Assembly: GCA_943356745.1 (NCBI GenBank)
Contig: CALRFT010000003.1
Span: 10,853 to 74,852 of the forward strand
DNA: 64,000 nucleotides
Direction: 5' to 3'
From: Parcubacteria group bacterium
GTDB taxonomy: Bacteria; Patescibacteriota; Minisyncoccia; Phycocordibacterales; CSBR16-119
Shown here: positions 31,802 to 40,799 of the stretch, one piece after another
How positions within the stretch are numbered: the first letter of the stretch is position 1
Layout: each line of letters starts with the position of its first letter
Position numbers and translations under genes: made by a program
The notes under the pieces: model-generated
Seen by the model: the letters and a program-made list of their open reading frames with translations, nothing else
What the model was told of the DNA's origin: nothing
The model's database searches: none

Positions 31802-33691
31802 TTATTCTACGACTCTGTCGTTATTTGCATTATACTCAGTATCTCTTGAAAGACTAGAGTTGAGTTGACCAAATGTTTTTGAAACAATATCTCCAGTGAA
31901 AGCATCTTTAGCTTCGAGACTTCCAGAAGAGATAATTGTTGGTAAGGTTTGTATTTGAGAAACTGATGGAATAAATCCAACTTTAAAATATATTTTTTTT
32001 GAACCTGAAGCCCCTGGGGTAATTTCTCCAGCATTCCATGTGAGTCTTCTGTTAATTGAATTGTATGAAATATTTGCATCTTCTGGGAAAGATTCACCTT
32101 TCCAAGTTATATATGAAGGAAGATCAGCAACAACTTTTACATCATCGAGACTACTCGTTGTTGATGAGACTGTCCATTCGACGGTATATGTTGTTTCTTC
32201 TCCAACCTTTGGAGGAAGAGTTCCACTATTCACAAATGGTCCATTATTGAAAAATAGAGCATTTGAAATAGAAACATCAGAAGCAACTCGAATCACTCCA
32301 TTGTAAATATTACTTACCTCTTCAGGTTGTGTACCTTGTCCAACAATAACTCCTTTTGCATCAATAGCAACTGATATTGTTGGGTTTGCAACCCCAGCTT
32401 TTGGAATAAGAGAGAAATAAAGTTGGCCTGTTTTTCCAGGAGAAATGTTGTTAAGATTACTGTTATTATTTTGATTCCAAATAATTCTACCTTGATTATT
32501 ATCAAAAAATCCTTGGTTTACAGTTACTCTAGTTGGGTCAAAACCATTTCCAGAAAATCGAGCTGTGATCTCCAAAGAAGAAAGTGAGGTATCAAGTTCA
32601 TTTTCCCAATCAATTGTAAATGTTGTTTCTCCTGTTGAAGAAACGATAAACTGGTTTGACTTTGTTTGACCAGTCGAAAGTTCTGCTGAAACAAATGGGG
32701 TGCCAATTTCTATCGCAAGCGGTGTTGCGGTAAACTGAACTCCAATTTCTTGTTCATCGTCTGGATTTTGACTTCCAGAAATAACAGTAATGATTCTTTC
32801 TTCACCATTACTTGCTCGAATTGATCCTTGAATTTGAATTGTTTTTTCAACTCCCGGTGCTAAATCCCCCAAAACCCAGGTATCGTTTCCAAAGTCAGGT
32901 TCTGGACTCGCACTTTCAAATTTGAATCCTGAAGGATATGTCACAACAAGCATCATGTTTTCTGTTACTTCTGTACTATTTTGAATAACAGTAATATCTG
33001 TTGAAAATAACTGATTTGAAACAACATTTTCTGGACCTTCAACAATAACATCAACTGGTGATGTTGCTATCGTTACCTGATAATCATATTCTTTTACGAA
33101 AATAGCATTTGAATTTTCAACTCGATATTCAAGTGTAAATGTTACATCTCGCACAGAACCCTGTTCTCCAAAGATAGCAATTTCTACAATATCCTCCGCA
33201 ATATCTCCACTTTTAATTTCCCCAAGAGAAACACGTTCTCGAACAATATCTTCTGCACCACCAACTCCTTTTGAATACTCAACAAGAATATCGGCAATTT
33301 CAATATTTGTTCTATTTCTGTTTGCAACCTTGATTTGAAGAGGAAGTTCTTCCCCACCATCAACAAATGAGTTTCCAAGAACAACAATATCAATATTATT
33401 GTTTGAAATTGTTGTACCACCTTGGAAAAAAGTAAAGAAAGCAAAAATCATTGAACCCAAGAAAAAAGCAATCGCCACCATAAAAAGGTTACGGAAATTT
33501 TTTGAGTGCATTAAATGTTTTTTTCTTTTTTTAGTTGGCATTTGATTATCACCACTCCACGCGGATGGAATAGTTGAAACACTGTCATGTAACTCATGTC
33601 TTGTAACTTGTTTTGGTTCCCGACCACGAACATAGAGTTCGCGTTCACTCATTTCTAATTTATCGGGAATGATTTTTTTTCTTTCTTCCAT
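31802..33691 (-). CDS. large membrane-anchored hypothetical protein with repeated beta-sandwich (DUF11/CARDB-like) domains
   Basis: 629 aa with a basic N-terminus and one TM (..FMVAIAFFLGSMIFAFFTFF..). It then has ~540 aa of T/S/V/N-rich beta-strand repeats. Confidence 0.5.
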   Translation of the reverse strand: MEERKKIIPDKLEMSERELYVRGREPKQVTRHELHDSVSTIPSAWSGDNQMPTKKRKKHLMHSKNFRNLFMVAIAFFLGSMIFAFFTFFQGGTTISNNNIDIVVLGNSFVDGGEELPLQIKVANRNRTNIEIADILVEYSKGVGGAEDIVRERVSLGEIKSGDIAEDIVEIAIFGEQGSVRDVTFTLEYRVENSNAIFVKEYDYQVTIATSPVDVIVEGPENVVSNQLFSTDITVIQNSTEVTENMMLVVTYPSGFKFESASPEPDFGNDTWVLGDLAPGVEKTIQIQGSIRASNGEERIITVISGSQNPDDEQEIGVQFTATPLAIEIGTPFVSAELSTGQTKSNQFIVSSTGETTFTIDWENELDTSLSSLEITARFSGNGFDPTRVTVNQGFFDNNQGRIIWNQNNNSNLNNISPGKTGQLYFSLIPKAGVANPTISVAIDAKGVIVGQGTQPEEVSNIYNGVIRVASDVSISNALFFNNGPFVNSGTLPPKVGEETTYTVEWTVSSTTSSLDDVKVVADLPSYITWKGESFPEDANISYNSINRRLTWNAGEITPGASGSKKIYFKVGFIPSVSQIQTLPTIISSGSLEAKDAFTGDIVSKTFGQLNSSLSRDTEYNANNDRVVE

Positions 33692-33712
33692 ATGATTATA
33701 AGTATAGCAAGC

Positions 33713-34300
33713 TTAGAGATGACTTTCACGAAGAGACTGTTTAATTCTTTCCAAAAGCTCATATTTTTTTTGACTTGTTCTATCTAAGGTTTCTCTTGTA
33801 AAGGCTGAATTATGTAAACTGTATGATTCTTTAAACTCTTCCCAATATCCAAGACGATGGAGAATCTTGATTGTTACCAAAATCTCAATCGCCTCTATTG
33901 TCTCACTATCAAAGGTTTTTGAAATTTTAAGACAAGCTTCATAGATATCAGAAAAAAGACTTTCTTGAGATTCTTCTCCAACATACAACCTTCGAAGCAA
34001 ATTCGCGATTCTTGAGATAGATTCCTGTGCCTTTTTTGAAAAACCGGCAAAGGTTACTTGTTCTCCATCAAACGGTAATGCGTTGGTAATTCTCCAAACA
34101 TCCTTTCCTCGCACAAACTCGATAACTGAAAAAGAGTACTGTTGGAGGAAGGGATTGAGTTTTGATGTAGTAGAACGAACCCCTTGAGCGCTTGCATGTA
34201 TGAGTCCAAAGTCCTGTGTCACAATCCAAAAAAACCGGTTTTTTTCACCTGTATCCATTGCGTCAATAATGAAACCTGGGTTTTGATGGATTGTATACAT
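33713..34300 (-). CDS. recO: DNA repair protein RecO (short form)
   Basis: N-terminal OB-fold pattern (GFIIDAMDTGEKNRFFWIVTQDFGLIHASAQGVRSTTSKL..PF..) resembles RecO. 195 aa and apparently lacking the zinc-binding tail. Confidence 0.55.
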   Translation of the reverse strand: MYTIHQNPGFIIDAMDTGEKNRFFWIVTQDFGLIHASAQGVRSTTSKLNPFLQQYSFSVIEFVRGKDVWRITNALPFDGEQVTFAGFSKKAQESISRIANLLRRLYVGEESQESLFSDIYEACLKISKTFDSETIEAIEILVTIKILHRLGYWEEFKESYSLHNSAFTRETLDRTSQKKYELLERIKQSLRESHL

Positions 34301-37300
34301 TAACGGATTGAAATACTTACTTTGTAATCTTCAAGATCAACAACCTCACCTTCTTTTTCTTCAAAAATAAATTTCTCTACCTGAGCAAGTTGTTTTATTT
34401 CTGAACTAAATGTTTCCACTAAATCTTGAGCCTCTGGCGACACCACGAGTGTGATTATTTGTTTTGGAGAAAGATCTTTTTTCTTTCGAAGATCTTGGAT
34501 TGCACGAAGGAGTTCTCTGTATTTTCCTTCACGTTTTAATTCTTCTGTAAGATTGGTATCAAGAGAGATTTCTTTAGCAACTAGAACTTCTTTCACATTA
34601 AGTTCATCTTCAATAATTTCAAGATATTCTCTTTGAAGATTTTCTGTGATGGTGAAACTTTGGAGTGGTTGACGTACTTTTACACCAGACTTTTGCCGGA
34701 GTAGAAGACCCTGACTTGCAAGATCTCGAGTGAGTTTCATTGCACTCAAAATACTTGTATCGAACGAAGAAACCTGTGGCCAATCACACAGATGAACAGA
34801 TTCTGGATCATTTTCTTCTTTCACTGTTTGATACACCTCTTCAGCAACAAACGGAATATATGGCGCTGCAACCTTTGCAAATTCTTTCAAAACAAATCGA
34901 GTCGTTGAAAGCGCAGCTGCCTTATCTTCGCCATCACTCTTGAATCTGTCTCGTGAACGACGAACATACCATGTTGAAAGATCGTCAACAAAATCAAAGA
35001 GTGGCCTTGCTCCTTTGTCGATGAGGTAGCTTTCAAGCCCTTCTTCAACATCTCGAATCGTTTCATAGAGTCTTGCGAGAATCCACTTATCGAGAATATT
35101 TTGACTTTGGTTGTGGGCTCTTTCTCCAGCACTATACATTTCATAAAATGTCGCTGAGTTTCTGTATCGTCCCATCACCTTACTCTGAACCTCACTCACT
35201 GTTTTTTCACTAAAGTTTACATCTTCTGCGTGAACCGCAGGACTCGCCATGAGAAACAGTCGAAGTGCATCTGCTCCCTCTTTGTCGATCATATGGTTGA
35301 GATCTGGATAGTTCTTGAGACGTTTTGCCATTTTCTTTCCATCTTCGGCAAGTACGAGTCCATTTACCAAAACATTTTTAAATGCTGGTTGATCAAACTG
35401 TGCACTCGCAAGAACCATCATCACATAAAACCAACCCCGTGTTTGGTCTTGTCCTTCTGCAACGAAGTCCGCTGGGAAACGTTTTGTTTTTTTAAACAAA
35501 CCTTTCTTTGGTTGAAACCGTGAATCATCAAATGGATAGTGATGTGACGCATACGGCATAGAACCACTATCAAACCATACATCAAACACATCTGGAATTC
35601 GTTTGTATGATTCTCCATCTTTTTCAATTTTGAAATTGTCGATATATGGACGATGGAGATCAAGTTCTCGAAGTCTTGTATTGTCGACAAACAAAGTGAC
35701 TGGTACCGCGTTTCCAGTAAGCGCAGGATTACTAAAAATTGATGAAACAGCATCTTCATTTGAAATACCTTTCAAAAGTTTCATCATTGAAGAACCTGTT
35801 CCCTGATGTGAAAACACAACCACTGTTTGCCCAGGATGCTTTGCAATAATATCTCTCAAAAAATCTTCTGTTCTATCATCTAGATCTTTCCAAGATTCTC
35901 CTGTTCCACCACGCTTGAAAAGATATCGTTCCTCTACTGGAAGATTTTTATATGCATCTCTTTCAGCTTTCACCTCTGGATCAAACTGTGTTTTCTCTTC
36001 CCAATTTCCTGAAGTAATTTCTTTCAGTCTGTCATCAAAAATAATTTCCTTTCCAGATTTTTTTGTGTAATGTTCTGCAGTTTGTTTTACTCGAAGTATT
36101 GGAGATGAATACACAACATCAACTTTTTCTTTCACAATTTTTTCTGCCGCCTTTTCAGCTTGAGAGTGTCCAAGTTCAGTGAGTGGATGTTTATCAAGCG
36201 CTGAAGAAGAAATTTCTTTAACATTATGTTCTGCTTGTCCGTGTCGTACAAAAATAATTTTTGTAATTTGCCCTTGTGCATTTTCTCGCAAATCTTCGAT
36301 TGAGCCCAAGATGAGTTTCTTTCCCGATTCACTTTCCCAGATTGGAAGTGGCGTTCCCCAAAACCGCGCTCGTGATACTGACCAATCTCGAACTTCTTCA
36401 AGCCACTTTCCAAAACGACCATCTTTAATATGGTTTGGAACCCAATTTGTTTTTTGGTTATTTTTGATAAGTTTTTCTTTTACCTTTTGCACGTTCACAA
36501 ACCAACTCTCTGTCGCGTAGTTGATGAGTGGACAATCTGTTCGCCAACACACAGGATAGCTGTGAGTATATTTTTTCTTTTCGAAAAGTTTTCCATTTCG
36601 TGCGAGGTATTTTACAATCTCAACATCAACATGCTGGTGATCTGTCACGTTTCGCACTGCCCAACCTTTGACATCGTATCCAGCTTCTACCAAAAAGTTT
36701 TCTACTTCTGATACAAAATGTCCGTCCATTTTCACATGGTGGATTGGTTCTACTTTTTCTTTTTGACCAAGATTTAGGTCGTCTTGTCCAAAGCCTGGTG
36801 CAATATGCACGATTCCTGTTCCGTCTTCTGTAGTAACAAAATCCCCCGCAACAACTCGAAATGCGTTTGCGTGGTTTTTGTAAATTGGGAAAATTGGTTC
36901 GTATGTTGAACCGATGAGATCTTTTCCTTGGAATGTTTTTTCAACTGAATATTCTTTTTGGGCCACAGCTGACTCGAGAAGTTTTGAAGCAATAATATAT
37001 TTTTGATCTCCAATTACAACCACAGAATATTCAATCTCCTCTCCCACCGCCAAAAGCACATTCCCTGGAAGTGTCCACGGAGTTGTTGTCCACGCTACCA
37101 TATGTGCTCCTTTGTGTGGACCACTCGTCAAAGTGAAGTTTGCATACACAGAAATATCAGTAATGTCTTTGTATCCTCCCATGTTTACTTCTTGATTTGA
37201 AAGCACTGTTTCAAGTGGAGGAGAAACCATCATCGACTTATAGCTTTTGTAGACCAAACCTTGGTCATCAAGATTTTTGAATACAGCCCATACACTTTCC

Positions 37301-37764
37301 ATAAATTCTGGATCCATCGTTTTGTATGGATTGTCCATGTCTACAAATCTTCCAACTCGCGGAATATATTCTTTCCAATCTGTCTCATATCGAAGAACAC
37401 TCGCCCGTGCGGCTTGGTTGAACTTTTCGATTCCATACTCAACAATGTCCTGGTTTGTTGGAAGGTTCAGTTCTTTTTGGATGAGGTTTTCAATCGGAAG
37501 CCCGTGACAATCCCAACCCCACTGACGTGGAACATGGAAACCTTTCATGGTTTTATATCGTGGAATCACATCTTTCATTGTTCCCGGCAAAAGATGTCCG
37601 TAGTGTGGAAGTCCTGTTGCGTATGGAGGTCCATCGAAAAATACAAACTCACCTTCTGGTGAATCTTTTTGCAAAGACTTTTGGAAAATATTTTGGTCCT
37701 TCCAAAACTTCAATATTTTTTCTTCTACTAATGCAACTTGTGATTTTTTTTGTTCTTCGTTCAT
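34300..37764 (-). CDS. ileS: isoleucyl-tRNA synthetase with an inserted ~200-aa histidine phosphatase (phosphoglycerate-mutase-like) domain
   Basis: HIGH region (PHYGHLLPG), CP1 editing domain (TTTPWTLPGN) and KMSKS variant (KMAKR). Between ..PIWESESGKK.. and ..LDLHRPYID.. sits a complete histidine-phosphatase domain with RHG (IIFVRHGQAEHN), SSPILRVKQTAEH and a second His (VVFSHQG). Start is at the Met at 37764; the track ORF runs 35 codons further into the T-box terminator. Confidence 0.85.
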   Translation of the reverse strand: MNEEQKKSQVALVEEKILKFWKDQNIFQKSLQKDSPEGEFVFFDGPPYATGLPHYGHLLPGTMKDVIPRYKTMKGFHVPRQWGWDCHGLPIENLIQKELNLPTNQDIVEYGIEKFNQAARASVLRYETDWKEYIPRVGRFVDMDNPYKTMDPEFMESVWAVFKNLDDQGLVYKSYKSMMVSPPLETVLSNQEVNMGGYKDITDISVYANFTLTSGPHKGAHMVAWTTTPWTLPGNVLLAVGEEIEYSVVVIGDQKYIIASKLLESAVAQKEYSVEKTFQGKDLIGSTYEPIFPIYKNHANAFRVVAGDFVTTEDGTGIVHIAPGFGQDDLNLGQKEKVEPIHHVKMDGHFVSEVENFLVEAGYDVKGWAVRNVTDHQHVDVEIVKYLARNGKLFEKKKYTHSYPVCWRTDCPLINYATESWFVNVQKVKEKLIKNNQKTNWVPNHIKDGRFGKWLEEVRDWSVSRARFWGTPLPIWESESGKKLILGSIEDLRENAQGQITKIIFVRHGQAEHNVKEISSSALDKHPLTELGHSQAEKAAEKIVKEKVDVVYSSPILRVKQTAEHYTKKSGKEIIFDDRLKEITSGNWEEKTQFDPEVKAERDAYKNLPVEERYLFKRGGTGESWKDLDDRTEDFLRDIIAKHPGQTVVVFSHQGTGSSMMKLLKGISNEDAVSSIFSNPALTGNAVPVTLFVDNTRLRELDLHRPYIDNFKIEKDGESYKRIPDVFDVWFDSGSMPYASHHYPFDDSRFQPKKGLFKKTKRFPADFVAEGQDQTRGWFYVMMVLASAQFDQPAFKNVLVNGLVLAEDGKKMAKRLKNYPDLNHMIDKEGADALRLFLMASPAVHAEDVNFSEKTVSEVQSKVMGRYRNSATFYEMYSAGERAHNQSQNILDKWILARLYETIRDVEEGLESYLIDKGARPLFDFVDDLSTWYVRRSRDRFKSDGEDKAAALSTTRFVLKEFAKVAAPYIPFVAEEVYQTVKEENDPESVHLCDWPQVSSFDTSILSAMKLTRDLASQGLLLRQKSGVKVRQPLQSFTITENLQREYLEIIEDELNVKEVLVAKEISLDTNLTEELKREGKYRELLRAIQDLRKKKDLSPKQIITLVVSPEAQDLVETFSSEIKQLAQVEKFIFEEKEGEVVDLEDYKVSISIR

Positions 37765-37789
37765 GATATGTATAAAAGCTAATAAATTG

Positions 37790-38010
37790 ATAAATAAAAA
37801 AACTCGCCCACAGAAATAAGTACAAAGACTTATTTCCAAGGGCGAGTTTTCTGTTTCCCGCGGTACCACCTTGTTTGATGCGGGAAAATGGCTTTGCCAT
37901 TTTCCCGCATCCTCATTACAGCTATTTCGGGCTTACCCGCCAAGTTCTACTTCCTTTAAAGGTTTCTTCTTGAAGCTCTGGAGTGATTAGTTCCTTCAAC
38001 GCTTGTAATT
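37790..38010 (-). promoter_or_regulatory. T-box riboswitch leader of ileS (boundaries approximate)
   Basis: The minus-strand RNA contains the conserved T-box core ..AAGGUGGUACCGCGGGAAAC.. (plus 37857..37870). It is followed directly by an intrinsic terminator (gggcgag...ctcgccc plus U-run, about 37797..37850) that ends about 30 nt before the ileS ATG. The 5' part contains an AGAG motif and candidate Ile specifier triplets. Confidence 0.8.
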
Positions 38011-38015
38011 GAAAT

Positions 38016-38047
38016 ATAACACAAAAAAATCAAAGAAAAAAGCCTTG
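38016..38047. terminator. hairpin aaaaagccttgtaa-ac-ttacaaggcttttt
   Basis: 13-bp stem flanked by A-run and T-run. Separates the 38124..38597 gene from the T-box/ileS unit. Confidence 0.7.
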
Positions 38048-38123
38048 TAAACTTACAAGGCTTTTTGGAAAATGTCCGATTTGTTACACGCTCACTTTAA
38101 CAACATGAATTCCTATTCCGACA

Positions 38124-38597
38124 CTACAACCAGCAAAAAAGAATCTCGCGAAAAATTCCATCTACTATTGTTTTTCGCTCTGGGTTGCAAAAAATTTTAC
38201 CACCCTTAGAAATAAGAATTAGACCAACACGAGTGTCAGAATGACGCTTTTTGATTGAATCCAAAACTACCTTTTCGAGGTAATTAATCAAATAGTTAAG
38301 TTTTTCATATTCAGATGAAAGACGAAGCTCAACAACTATTTCTGGTATACACATCTCATGATATTGAGTGATTTTCTTGTAAAGAAGGGTACTCACAGCT
38401 TTCTCAAAATCATTCATTTCCCCAAAGAAAAGTGGAAATGTTACTTCTTTAGGTTCATTATTATTGATAATACCCACTTTAGTTCCAGCATAAAGAAGCT
38501 CATTGTTCACTGTTTCGATTTCCTCCTGAGAAATTGAAAGGAGTTCGCCAATCCAGGTGTCATCCAGGCTTGCAAGGGTTTTTTGATTGTAATCCAT
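38124..38597 (-). CDS. hypothetical protein
   Basis: 157 aa, soluble, no family recognised. Confidence 0.45.
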   Translation of the reverse strand: MDYNQKTLASLDDTWIGELLSISQEEIETVNNELLYAGTKVGIINNNEPKEVTFPLFFGEMNDFEKAVSTLLYKKITQYHEMCIPEIVVELRLSSEYEKLNYLINYLEKVVLDSIKKRHSDTRVGLILISKGGKIFCNPERKTIVDGIFREILFCWL

Positions 38598-38671
38598 AAT
38601 ATAAAGAACGGTTTTAAATTAGGTTTATATTGAAACATAATAAAAAAACATTGTCAAGCACTGTTTTTTTA

Positions 38672-40357
38672 TTACATCCTCTCCAAATATTTAATTCCCA
38701 AAAGATGAAGTCCGTTTCCGATTGTTGTTGCAACGGACTGAGTGAGCCAAAGATTGTAAGAAACATTCAAATTTTCTTCATCAAGAATTTTTGTATTTCC
38801 ATACCAAGAATTAAACTCTCGCGCAAGTATCAAAAGATAGGTTGCAACATGATGCGGTTCCCATAACTTTTGAGAAGCTTCCACAACCTCAGGAAAACGA
38901 CAGAGATATTTTTCAAGATCAGAAACTTTTTCATCTTGTAGTTTTTGTGGTCTTGGTGCCAAGTTCATCCCCTTTCCTTTCTCGATAATAGAAAGACATC
39001 GAGCAACAGTATATTGCAAATATGGACCAGAATCTCCTTCAAAAGAAAGTGAAGTTTCTGGATCAAAATCAATATTTTTTCCAGCCATTGCTTTCAAGAT
39101 TGAAAACTTAATCGCAGCAATAGAAATTGCGTCAATTTTTTGAGTGTCATTTTTGTCTTCCAATCTTTCTTTCACCTCTTCCCCCACAGTCTCCAAAACC
39201 TCACTTGCAAGCGGAACACCGCCAAGCCGTGAAGACATTTTCTTTCCCTTGAAAGTCATTCTTCCATGAGTTCTATGGATTGTTTTTTCTTTCCACTCTG
39301 GTTTGATTTCACCCGCAGCTTCAAGCACTACTTTGTAGTATGAAGATTGTTCATTGTCAGTAATAAGAATAGAGGTGTTGGGATTATATCGAGAAAATTT
39401 AATATCAAGAAGTCCAATATCCTTCGCTTCGTATGTTGGATATCCTTCACTATTAATAAATACTCTCGTATGAAGCCCACGCGCTTCTCCGTCAAAAATA
39501 ACAGCTCCGTCAGATTCTTGGAATACTGTTCCAATATTTTCTTTCACAATTTCTCGTCCGCGCGCCCCAGCCTCACTTTCAAAAATGAATTCATGAAATG
39601 AAGAACCAAGTCTTTTTGTTTCTCCCAAGAAATATTCAAGATTTATTTCCTTTCCTTTCAAGTATGCAGAAAATTCTCTCCCTTCTTCTTTTTCATAAAT
39701 CTTTCGAGTAATCTCTTTTATCTCTTTTTGAATTTCTTCGCTTTCCTCAAATGCTTTTGTTCCATCAACATAGCACTGTCCCAAGAAATTGAGTTTTTCT
39801 TCAACAGTTTCAAGAGTCGAAAGATTTCCTTCACCTTTTTGCAAAAGACTCCACACAGCCTTTCCGATTCCCAAAGAAACATCAGATGGATATGAAATTT
39901 TCAAAACCTTTGCGCCTGAATATTCTGCGAGTCTCACAATTGACTCACCAACAGTATTGTTCATCACGTGACCAATGTGAAATGGTTTGAAAAGATTTGG
40001 GCTTGAATGTTCCACCACAATAGTGTCACCTTTTCGTGATTCATTTTTTCCATATTCAGAATCAATCTCAGAAATTGTTTCGTAGAAAATTTCAGGAGAA
40101 AGAAAGAAATTGATAAATCCAGGACCAGCAACTTCCACCTTTTCAATTCCTTGCACAGAAGAAATTTGAGAAACAATCTGTTCTCCAATTTCTCGTGGAT
40201 TTTTCCCAAGAATTTTTCCGTATCGCATCGCAACATTTGTTGCAAAGTCTCCATGAGAAAGCTCTCCAGGATGCTCAAAAGAAACCTCAGGGTTTGGAAC
40301 CCCAAGATCTTTCAAAATTTCAGATATTATTTTTGTAAGTGTTTCCAAAATTTTCAT
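38672..40357 (-). CDS. argS: arginyl-tRNA synthetase
   Basis: ..SPNLFKPFHIGHVMNNTVGESI.. (HIGH) and the ArgRS anticodon-binding C-terminus (..YLERM). Start is at the internal Met 40357 (MKILETLTKII..); the track ORF extends to 40459. Confidence 0.9.
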   Translation of the reverse strand: MKILETLTKIISEILKDLGVPNPEVSFEHPGELSHGDFATNVAMRYGKILGKNPREIGEQIVSQISSVQGIEKVEVAGPGFINFFLSPEIFYETISEIDSEYGKNESRKGDTIVVEHSSPNLFKPFHIGHVMNNTVGESIVRLAEYSGAKVLKISYPSDVSLGIGKAVWSLLQKGEGNLSTLETVEEKLNFLGQCYVDGTKAFEESEEIQKEIKEITRKIYEKEEGREFSAYLKGKEINLEYFLGETKRLGSSFHEFIFESEAGARGREIVKENIGTVFQESDGAVIFDGEARGLHTRVFINSEGYPTYEAKDIGLLDIKFSRYNPNTSILITDNEQSSYYKVVLEAAGEIKPEWKEKTIHRTHGRMTFKGKKMSSRLGGVPLASEVLETVGEEVKERLEDKNDTQKIDAISIAAIKFSILKAMAGKNIDFDPETSLSFEGDSGPYLQYTVARCLSIIEKGKGMNLAPRPQKLQDEKVSDLEKYLCRFPEVVEASQKLWEPHHVATYLLILAREFNSWYGNTKILDEENLNVSYNLWLTQSVATTIGNGLHLLGIKYLERM

Positions 40358-40376
40358 ATCAATACTATACCTCAAA

Positions 40377-40799
40377 TTACACTCCCGTGCTACCAAAACC
40401 TCCCTCTCCTCGAGACGAATCTGAAAGCTCTGAAACCTCTTCAATTTCAGCTTGTACAATTGGTTGTATTAAACCTTGCGCAACCTTTTTCCCTTTCTCA
40501 AAGGTGTAGGGTTCTTGCCCAAGATTTATTACAGCAATTTGAAGTTCTCCTCGATATCCCGAGTCAATCACACCAGCGATTGTTGTCACACCTCCCTTTG
40601 TTGAAATCCCGCTTTTGTCCCACACTAAAAATACATAACCTTCCGGAAATTCCATAGAGATGCCTGTTTTTACCAGCCCACGTTCACCGGGATTTAAAGT
40701 GAGAGTTTCTGACGCAAAAATATCCATCCCTGCGTCTCCCTTTTTTGCATAACTTGGAAACACCGCGTCACTGTGAAGTTTTTTGATTTTGAGTTTCAT
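40377..40799 (-). CDS. dut: dUTP diphosphatase (trimeric dUTPase)
   Basis: MKLKIKKLHSDAVFPSYAKKGDAGMDIFA.., ..GVIDSGYRGEL.. and C-terminal motif V ..RGEGGFGSTG. Start is at the internal Met 40799. Confidence 0.9.
   Translation of the reverse strand: MKLKIKKLHSDAVFPSYAKKGDAGMDIFASETLTLNPGERGLVKTGISMEFPEGYVFLVWDKSGISTKGGVTTIAGVIDSGYRGELQIAVINLGQEPYTFEKGKKVAQGLIQPIVQAEIEEVSELSDSSRGEGGFGSTGV

Follow-up and report, generated by a model that had tools for sequence, protein, structure and literature searches.

Results

The ileS locus and its leader

The window, by which we mean the whole 64,000-nucleotide stretch analysed here, comes from a Parcubacteria group bacterium (Patescibacteriota) and carries on its minus strand the gene of an isoleucyl-tRNA synthetase (IleS), 5' of which a T-box leader spans positions 38002..37796 (Table 1). 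This leader comprises Stem I and its K-turn, Stem II and its S-turn, the IIA/B pseudoknot, Stem III, the GGUGGUACCGCGG core, the antiterminator, and the terminator. The structures that best match the encoded protein are those of IleRS2 and cytoplasmic IleRS (E ~1e-199), as against 5e-90 for the IleRS1 of S. aureus, and those of its best 120 relatives that are named by source all belong to Patescibacteria, Paceibacterota, or Parcubacteria. The gene order argS, small ORF(s), ileS, a recO-like gene, and a large DUF11/CLIPPER protein (31802-40459 in the window) is kept in close relatives (loci L081-L086), and no Pfam family was matched by the 157-aa ORF (38597..38124) that lies 5' of the leader. 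Searches of the window and of 45 fetched loci yielded no tRNA-Ile gene.

Table 1. Coordinates of the features of the ileS locus and of related T-box loci (window positions unless a locus is named)
Feature	Position	Strand	Basis or remark
ileS, type-2 isoleucyl-tRNA synthetase, 1154 aa, with inserted histidine-phosphatase domain	34300..37764	-	Pfam, homologues, structure matches
Terminator-like hairpin of the upstream 157-aa ORF	38037..38066	-	13-bp stem, 4-nt loop, T-rich tail
Promoter-like extended -10, TGTTATATT (putative)	38013..38021	-	read from sequence
Ultrashort Stem I: K-turn, 3-4 bp helix, 7-nt loop CUAAUCA	37975..38002	-	Rfam alignment, relatives, covariation
Specifier AUC (Ile)	37985..37987	-	followed by conserved purine A, 37984
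Stem II with S-turn, GAAGAAA (5' strand) and AGUAGAA (3' strand)	37940..37974	-	consensus match, covariation
IIA/B pseudoknot, CGGGUAAGCCCG and downstream AGCU	37920..37939	-	IIA CGG/CCG; IIB AGC/GCU
Stem III, perfect 16-bp hairpin GAUGCGGGAAAAUGGC-AAA-GCCAUUUUCCCGCAUC	37877..37912	-	Rfam alignment, folding
Antiterminator	37838..37872	-	AAGG-UGGUACC-GCGGG...CUCGC-CCUU, consensus-aligned
Intrinsic terminator, 23-bp interrupted hairpin and U7	37796..37850	-	folding; 5' arm overlaps the A2/A1 3' strands
Second short-Stem-I T-box, Patescibacteria contig	L062:98-274	-	Rfam 46 bits, E = 3.8e-9
Example loci of the Asp/Asn set	L134:2299-2441(-), L120:2355-2501(-), L140:1703-1848(+), L149:2114-2268(+)		

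The initial annotation had proposed a T-box leader at this place, to be checked with the Rfam T-box model (RF00230), and had named a bit score below threshold as an argument against it. In E-value mode, in a search over 451 nt, the model aligns end to end to 38008..37835 with 62.5 bits and E = 2.4e-13, which rescales to ~3e-11 for the 64-kb window and lies far beyond chance; in gathering mode, with a gathering score of 93, the same 64-kb window yields three tRNAs only and no T-box. The shortfall of ~30 bits is explained by the deletion of the distal Stem I and does not mark a false positive: 76 model positions, covering everything in Stem I above the lowest helix, are represented by 7 nt in the leader, and the K-turn, Stem II with its AGUA, IIA, the purines flanking Stem III, the bulge, A1, and A2 all match the consensus. 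The score is indeed below threshold, and the identity of the leader stands nonetheless because of the E-value, the other modules, and the conserved and covarying structure of its relatives. On these grounds, the ileS leader is confirmed as a real T-box riboswitch of a stripped-down kind, for which tRNA sensing is predicted from membership in the family. The whole leader (226 nt) folds at -80.9 kcal/mol (z = -6.3).

All elements of the leader fit into 300 nt, bounded by the terminator-like hairpin of the upstream ORF on one side and by the ileS ATG on the other. This hairpin, which is only ~35 nt away from Stem I, sets the 5' limit of the leader, and together with the promoter-like element near Stem I it leaves no room for a long Stem I. 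The promoter-like element is putative, as a consensus promoter scan gave no -35/-10 pair at the leader; TGnTATAGT elements with equal spacing to the leader are found in the relatives L081, L083, and L085.

An ultrashort Stem I with an isoleucine specifier

Above a K-turn whose strands, GC-GUU-GA...GA-GC, match the consensus gCgaUGA...GAGc at the level of sequence, Stem I consists of the hairpin GGA(A)-CUAAUCA-(C)UCC, and it is because of this ultrashort, non-canonical form that it could not be folded by eye in the initial annotation. The AUC triplet and the A that follows it form the 3' end of the terminal loop, which is the specifier position in hairpin-loop T-boxes according to the TBDB rule, and the codon matches the ileS gene downstream. 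Of the two Ile triplets considered as specifiers at the outset, the AUC in CUAAUCAC is thus confirmed as the Ile codon of the Stem I loop, and the AUA in GAAAUAGC was rejected, since it sits in the linker between Stem IIA and its pseudoknot partner. The 'AGAG-like box' noticed in the same part of the leader (CCAGAGC) proved to be the 3' strand of the K-turn and not an AG-bulge box such as a long Stem I would have. In all 15 related ileS leaders, Stem I is a hairpin of 3-6 bp with a loop of 5-9 nt ending in AUCA, three of them having one extra nucleotide after AUCA, and its pairs covary in the metagenome leaders described below (e.g., GC:16 and CG:15 at one pair).

The elements that follow are likewise maintained by compensatory exchange. 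Both helices of Stem II show such changes (UCAAG/CUUGG to UUGGA/UCCGA in one, CCU/AGG to GCU/AGC or UCC/GGA in the other); the closing pair of IIA varies from C-G to G-C to U-A among relatives; and IIB is retained as AGC/GCU in most leaders, with one compensatory switch to UGC/GCA (L062). The Stem III hairpin, present in the window, is absent from L081:1561-1727, L083:1791-1938, and L084:1806-1946 (..AAUAAG-UU-AAAAGCAAGGUGG..), and in L085 a long imperfect insert occupies this site, with helix A2 carrying an insertion too.

Mutually exclusive antiterminator and terminator

The T-box core had been recognized correctly in the initial annotation and its coordinates (37857..37870) were off by one base, the actual position being 37870..37858. 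It opens the antiterminator, which is composed of helix A1 (AAGG/CCUU), the 7-nt bulge UGGUACC (37868..37862), and helix A2 (GCGGG/CUCGC), with an energy of -6.0 kcal/mol as drawn and -9.4 kcal/mol as the minimum free energy of the truncated RNA. Across relatives, the paired fraction in A1 and A2 is 98.7-100 %, and double changes occur. The UGGU of the bulge implies A73 in the cognate tRNA, which is usual for bacterial tRNA-Ile. At the base of A2, the G.U pair that adjoins the T-box bulge in the Rfam consensus is replaced by G-C in the window; within the family the counts of GC/AU/GU/UA at this pair are 8/5/2/1 in one alignment (A3) and 20/10/3/4 in another (A4). The G.U pair at this place has been described as a steric sensor of aminoacylation (PMC7583486).

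The terminator hairpin (37850..37803), followed by seven U residues (37802..37796), has a predicted energy of -32.5 kcal/mol (z = -5.3), and none of 200 shuffled sequences was equally stable. Its 5' arm, AAAACUCGCCCUUGG, doubles as the 3' strand of helices A2 and A1 in the antiterminator, the strand common to both structures being CUCGCCCUU, and the two folds are therefore mutually exclusive, in keeping with the terminator/antiterminator switch that had been proposed from the sequence. Between the end of the U-tract and the ileS ATG (37764) lie 31 nt, where about 30 nt had been estimated. A consensus terminator scan missed this terminator, owing to its internal loops, and it was folding that revealed the hairpin; terminator-like sites are about twice as frequent in this genome region as expected from shuffles (25 versus 12.2 +/- 3.6). 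A hairpin with U5-8, its 5' arm overlapping the antiterminator, is present in most relatives, and an automated test found a hairpin with at least five U residues in 46 of 54 distinct leaders; the terminators of L083, L084, L024, and L075 were read by eye, as the script chose a U-run within the terminator loop. In L044, the terminator itself has undergone a compensatory change, from CUCGCCC/GGGCGAG to AUCGUCC/GGACGAU.

No Shine-Dalgarno-like motif was detected within positions -24 to -1 of the start codon in any of the 15 ileS leaders, nor within the hairpin of the window. Metagenome leaders that do have a Shine-Dalgarno sequence (e.g., L088, L097, and L149) carry it unpaired, 3' of the hairpin and the U-tract. 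The combination of a hairpin and U-tract with no Shine-Dalgarno sequence to be sequestered makes transcription attenuation the likely mechanism.

Related leaders in Patescibacteria and covariation

Relatives were sampled from 80 Patescibacteria ileS loci of species-representative genomes and from four distinct closer relatives (L081, with an identical second copy L082, L083, L084, and L085). A compact T-box leader was found in all four closer relatives and in ten of the 80 genome loci; in seven of the 80, the upstream sequence is too short to judge. A long-Stem-I T-box was found at none of the surveyed Patescibacteria ileS loci. The modules are conserved among IleS proteins that are only 40-55 % identical.

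A covariance model (R1), for which five close leaders and a hand-drawn structure served as input, detects one element in the window as well as the ten distant leaders. In the alignment of the 15 ileS leaders and two weaker matches, 93.5 % of the cells are paired and 21 of the 24 pairs change on both sides; none of 500 shuffles reaches the observed values, and slid controls are 30-52 % paired. The independent set of 41 metagenome leaders gives 94.8 % paired cells and a covariation score of 0.718, versus 0.202 for shuffles, again matched by none of 500, these alignments having been fitted to a model that was built from the same leader family. In L024, L069, L070, and L075, which have an extra hairpin after Stem I, R1 misplaced Stem I, so that the support was lowered rather than inflated. 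A generic hairpin finder was too noisy for Stem I, and the Stem I calls rest on the comparison of leaders and on the model alignment. Matches to TGGNACC in L003, L028, and L032 were dismissed as spurious, having neither other T-box modules nor a match to R1.

Several peculiarities of individual leaders may be recorded here. In the closest relative (L081/L082, IleS 87 % identical), Stems I and II are separated by an inserted GC-rich palindrome, CUGCCUGCCGGCAGGCAGG; in L081, moreover, A.A replaces G.A on both strands of the K-turn, and the leader lies ~240 nt upstream of the ileS start, as against ~30 nt. At L085:1067-1175, in the intergenic region 5' of the 159-aa ORF ahead of the ileS leader, there is a Stem-I-like fragment, GGCGUUGAAGGAACCAAUCACUCCUUC, with no other T-box parts, which may be a partial duplication.

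Aspartate, asparagine, and threonine versions

A metagenome scan, in which the S-turn and the T-box core were fixed and Stem I was left free, collected 80 loci (L087-L166), of which 41 match the short-Stem-I model; being selected by pattern, this set is not a census. The terminal-loop specifiers in these leaders are AUC (~20), GAC (~13), AAC (~7), and GUC (1). Leaders with GAC precede aspS or an Asp-tRNA(Asn) ligase gene, and those with AAC precede either asnS or an AspRS-family gene, which is bacterial-type aspS in L132 and an Asp-tRNA(Asn) ligase gene in L140. Most Asp/Asn leaders have a UGGC bulge, which fits a G73 discriminator, and also a terminator; the bulge of the Ile leaders is UGGU. 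The specifier thus corresponds to the gene, and the bulge base in most cases to the discriminator that it predicts, as would be expected of working T-boxes. One host of an Asp-type T-box belongs to Paceibacterota. The single GUC leader (L103) precedes a membrane protein, and its assignment to Val is putative; L149 and L150, which have weak scores, are perhaps not ultrashort in the strict sense.

The second short-Stem-I T-box of Table 1, on a Patescibacteria contig (L062), is preceded by a TTGACT-17-TATAAT promoter and has ACC, a Thr codon, in its Stem I loop (CCUACCAAA), a UGGA bulge, and a terminator with U6. The ORF that follows begins with MNEQLDKIRHSTSH, of which just 14 codons lie within the locus, too few for a family search; this start presumably resembles that of ThrRS, and the gene is probably thrS. 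None of the 21 compact T-boxes tested (20 loci) reaches the Rfam gathering score, and threshold-based Rfam annotation consequently misses compact T-boxes, so that T-box censuses of uncultured phyla undercount them.

Discussion

The results described above lead us to regard the leader as an Ile-specific T-box that controls ileS, most likely by transcription attenuation, and we assign this reading a probability of roughly 0.85. In the predicted mechanism, transcription would start just upstream of 38002, and the nascent RNA would form the ultrashort Stem I, the 7-nt loop of which could present AUC to the anticodon of tRNA-Ile. When the tRNA is uncharged, its 3' ACCA end would pair with the UGGU of the bulge and, together with Stem III, stabilize the weak antiterminator, allowing read-through into ileS; with a charged tRNA, or with none, the much more stable terminator would form, and transcription would stop at the U7 tract before the start codon. 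Binding of the tRNA, the response to its charging, and termination are here predicted by analogy with other members of the family. Against this reading speak the sub-threshold score, the missing distal Stem I, the G-C rather than G.U pair at the base of A2, and the lack of Stem III in close relatives.

The structure of the leader could also be taken to indicate translational regulation, as in the actinobacterial ultrashort ileS T-boxes, with the 3' hairpin sequestering the ribosome-binding region instead of terminating transcription. The ultrashort Stem I, the S-turn of Stem II, and the IIA/B pseudoknot together form the decoding module known from translational T-boxes, and the regulated gene, a type-2 ileS, is of the same kind; however, U7 follows directly after the hairpin and ends well ahead of the AUG, a Shine-Dalgarno-like sequence occurs neither in nor 3' of the hairpin in the window and 15 related leaders, and the Shine-Dalgarno sequences of the metagenome relatives are unpaired and lie beyond the hairpin and the U-tract, which makes this explanation unlikely. 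A different view would be that the leader, having lost the tRNA-elbow platform, is an evolutionary relic, serving as a constitutive partial terminator or having no function at all. The loss of the distal Stem I and the low score would be in agreement with such decay, as would the variability of Stem III among close relatives, the palindrome insert and the A.A K-turn of L081, and the occurrence of a T-box at only 10 of the 80 surveyed Patescibacteria ileS loci. Yet conservation extends to AUCA, the S-turn, the UGGUACC bulge, and every helix, with many compensatory changes, at 40-55 % IleS identity, and in the Asp, Asn, and Thr versions a change of regulated gene is accompanied by a change of both specifier and bulge base; these gene-matched changes are not those of a decaying relic, and we consider this possibility very unlikely.

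It would finally be conceivable that the region is coding, since the reading frame is open from a GTG at 37869 to the ileS stop, so that ileS would start there and the hairpin would fall within an N-terminal extension. This start was rejected: a database protein of 100 % identity has 1154 aa and, like all 29 aligned homologues, begins at the Met of ATG 37764, the stretch 5' of which shows frame-breaking 2-nt length differences among relatives. These differences, the conservation of RNA structure, and the match to the T-box model leave such an extension scarcely credible, and its dismissal as non-coding in the initial annotation was justified.

The leader is worth comparing with two kinds of known T-boxes. 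The ultrashort (US, 'class II') ileS T-boxes of the Actinobacteria M. tuberculosis, M. smegmatis, and Nocardia farcinica (Sherwood et al. 2015, as reported in PMC7583486 and bioRxiv 10.1101/2023.02.28.530422) are described there as translational and exclusively associated with ileS. The leader shares with them the short Stem I helix with a K-turn at its base and the Ile specifier in its terminal loop, the Stem II S-turn, the IIA/B pseudoknot, the UGGU bulge, and a type-2 ileS, and its relatives share the insertions in Stem III and helix A2; the S-turn and the pseudoknot are said to compensate for the lost elbow contact in US T-boxes. It differs in having an intrinsic terminator with U7 in place of a Shine-Dalgarno sequestrator, in residing in Patescibacteria, and in that relatives of the same design serve aspS, asnS, and apparently thrS. 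With the Firmicutes class I T-boxes (RF00230; e.g., B. subtilis tyrS, or glyQS), the leader has in common the T-box sequence, the purine following the specifier, and the exclusive antiterminator and terminator with a U-tract, and with most non-glycine T-boxes also Stem II, IIA/B, and Stem III. Unlike them, it is devoid of the ~70-nt distal Stem I, which comprises the specifier internal loop, the AG bulge, and the distal loop that stacks on the tRNA elbow, and it has G-C instead of G.U in A2 and a score 30 bits under the gathering threshold.

The leader has the core features of T-boxes and lacks one defining feature of each subclass, class I being marked by the long Stem I and its distal double-T-loop platform and the translational US class by the Shine-Dalgarno sequestrator/antisequestrator. 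It thus appears, as judged from sequence, to join a US-class decoding module to a Firmicutes-class expression platform, in a phylum for which neither seems to have been described: our literature search, in which the US class was represented by later papers, gave no T-box report for Patescibacteria, the candidate phyla radiation (CPR), or Parcubacteria, and the short-Stem-I model of TBDB was applied only to Actinobacteria and to Rfam hits with truncated Stem I.

According to a 2020 review, the distal Stem I is essential for transcriptional T-boxes and an ultrashort Stem I is a mark of translational ones (PMC7583486), and a 2024 paper concurs in assigning the ultrashort Stem I to translational T-boxes (PMC11297988). 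The rationale offered is kinetic, in that the elbow contact speeds the capture of tRNA before the polymerase reaches the terminator, a deadline that translational switches do not have (PMC7583486). The leader and its relatives are natural examples that apparently break this rule, and they would make the kinetic argument directly testable; if functional, such minimal T-boxes would sense tRNA co-transcriptionally with no contact to the tRNA elbow, and both the need of transcriptional T-boxes for a long Stem I and the restriction of the ultrashort class to translation and ileS would be overturned. Slow polymerases, pausing, a very stable Stem III, and K-turn proteins are candidate explanations of how attenuation could work with a short Stem I.

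Stem III has been described as indispensable in the T-boxes studied so far (PMC7583486), and its engineered lengthening in the M. smegmatis T-box raised tRNA affinity ~six-fold. We speculate that a long Stem III might partly compensate for the missing elbow contact.

Whether the Patescibacteria (CPR) possess an uncatalogued minimal class of T-box, defined by an ultrashort Stem I, a Stem II S-turn, optional IIA/B and Stem III, and an intrinsic terminator, and serving at least ileS and aspS/asnS and probably thrS, is in our estimation a matter of even odds. CPR bacteria, whose genomes are reduced, would also have tRNA-sensing riboswitches that serve several aminoacyl-tRNA synthetases, and compact tRNA-responsive terminators of ~135-170 nt would be attractive parts for synthetic biology.

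Two observations concern the IleS proteins rather than the leader. Several records in the set (L049, L053, L056, L059, L062, L063, L066, L067, and L070) are labelled Gammaproteobacteria, Pseudomonadales, 'archaeon', or Promethearchaeota, labels that clash with their Patescibacteria-type IleS, and L062, L067, and L070 also bear a compact T-box; these conflicts are probably due to mis-binning or mislabelling. The window IleS contains, halfway through its catalytic domain, a complete histidine-phosphatase domain (PF00300, E = 1.4e-37; aa ~501-689, 35698-36264 on the minus strand), for which our literature search returned no paper linking IleRS to such an insertion. The insert is present in all of the best 120 IleS homologues (Patescibacteria), and its nearest solved relatives are phosphoserine phosphatase 1 (4ij5) and PhoE (1ebb and 1h2e). 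The residues R507, H508, G509, R558, E582, and H653, which are of catalytic type, are invariant across the 29 aligned sequences.
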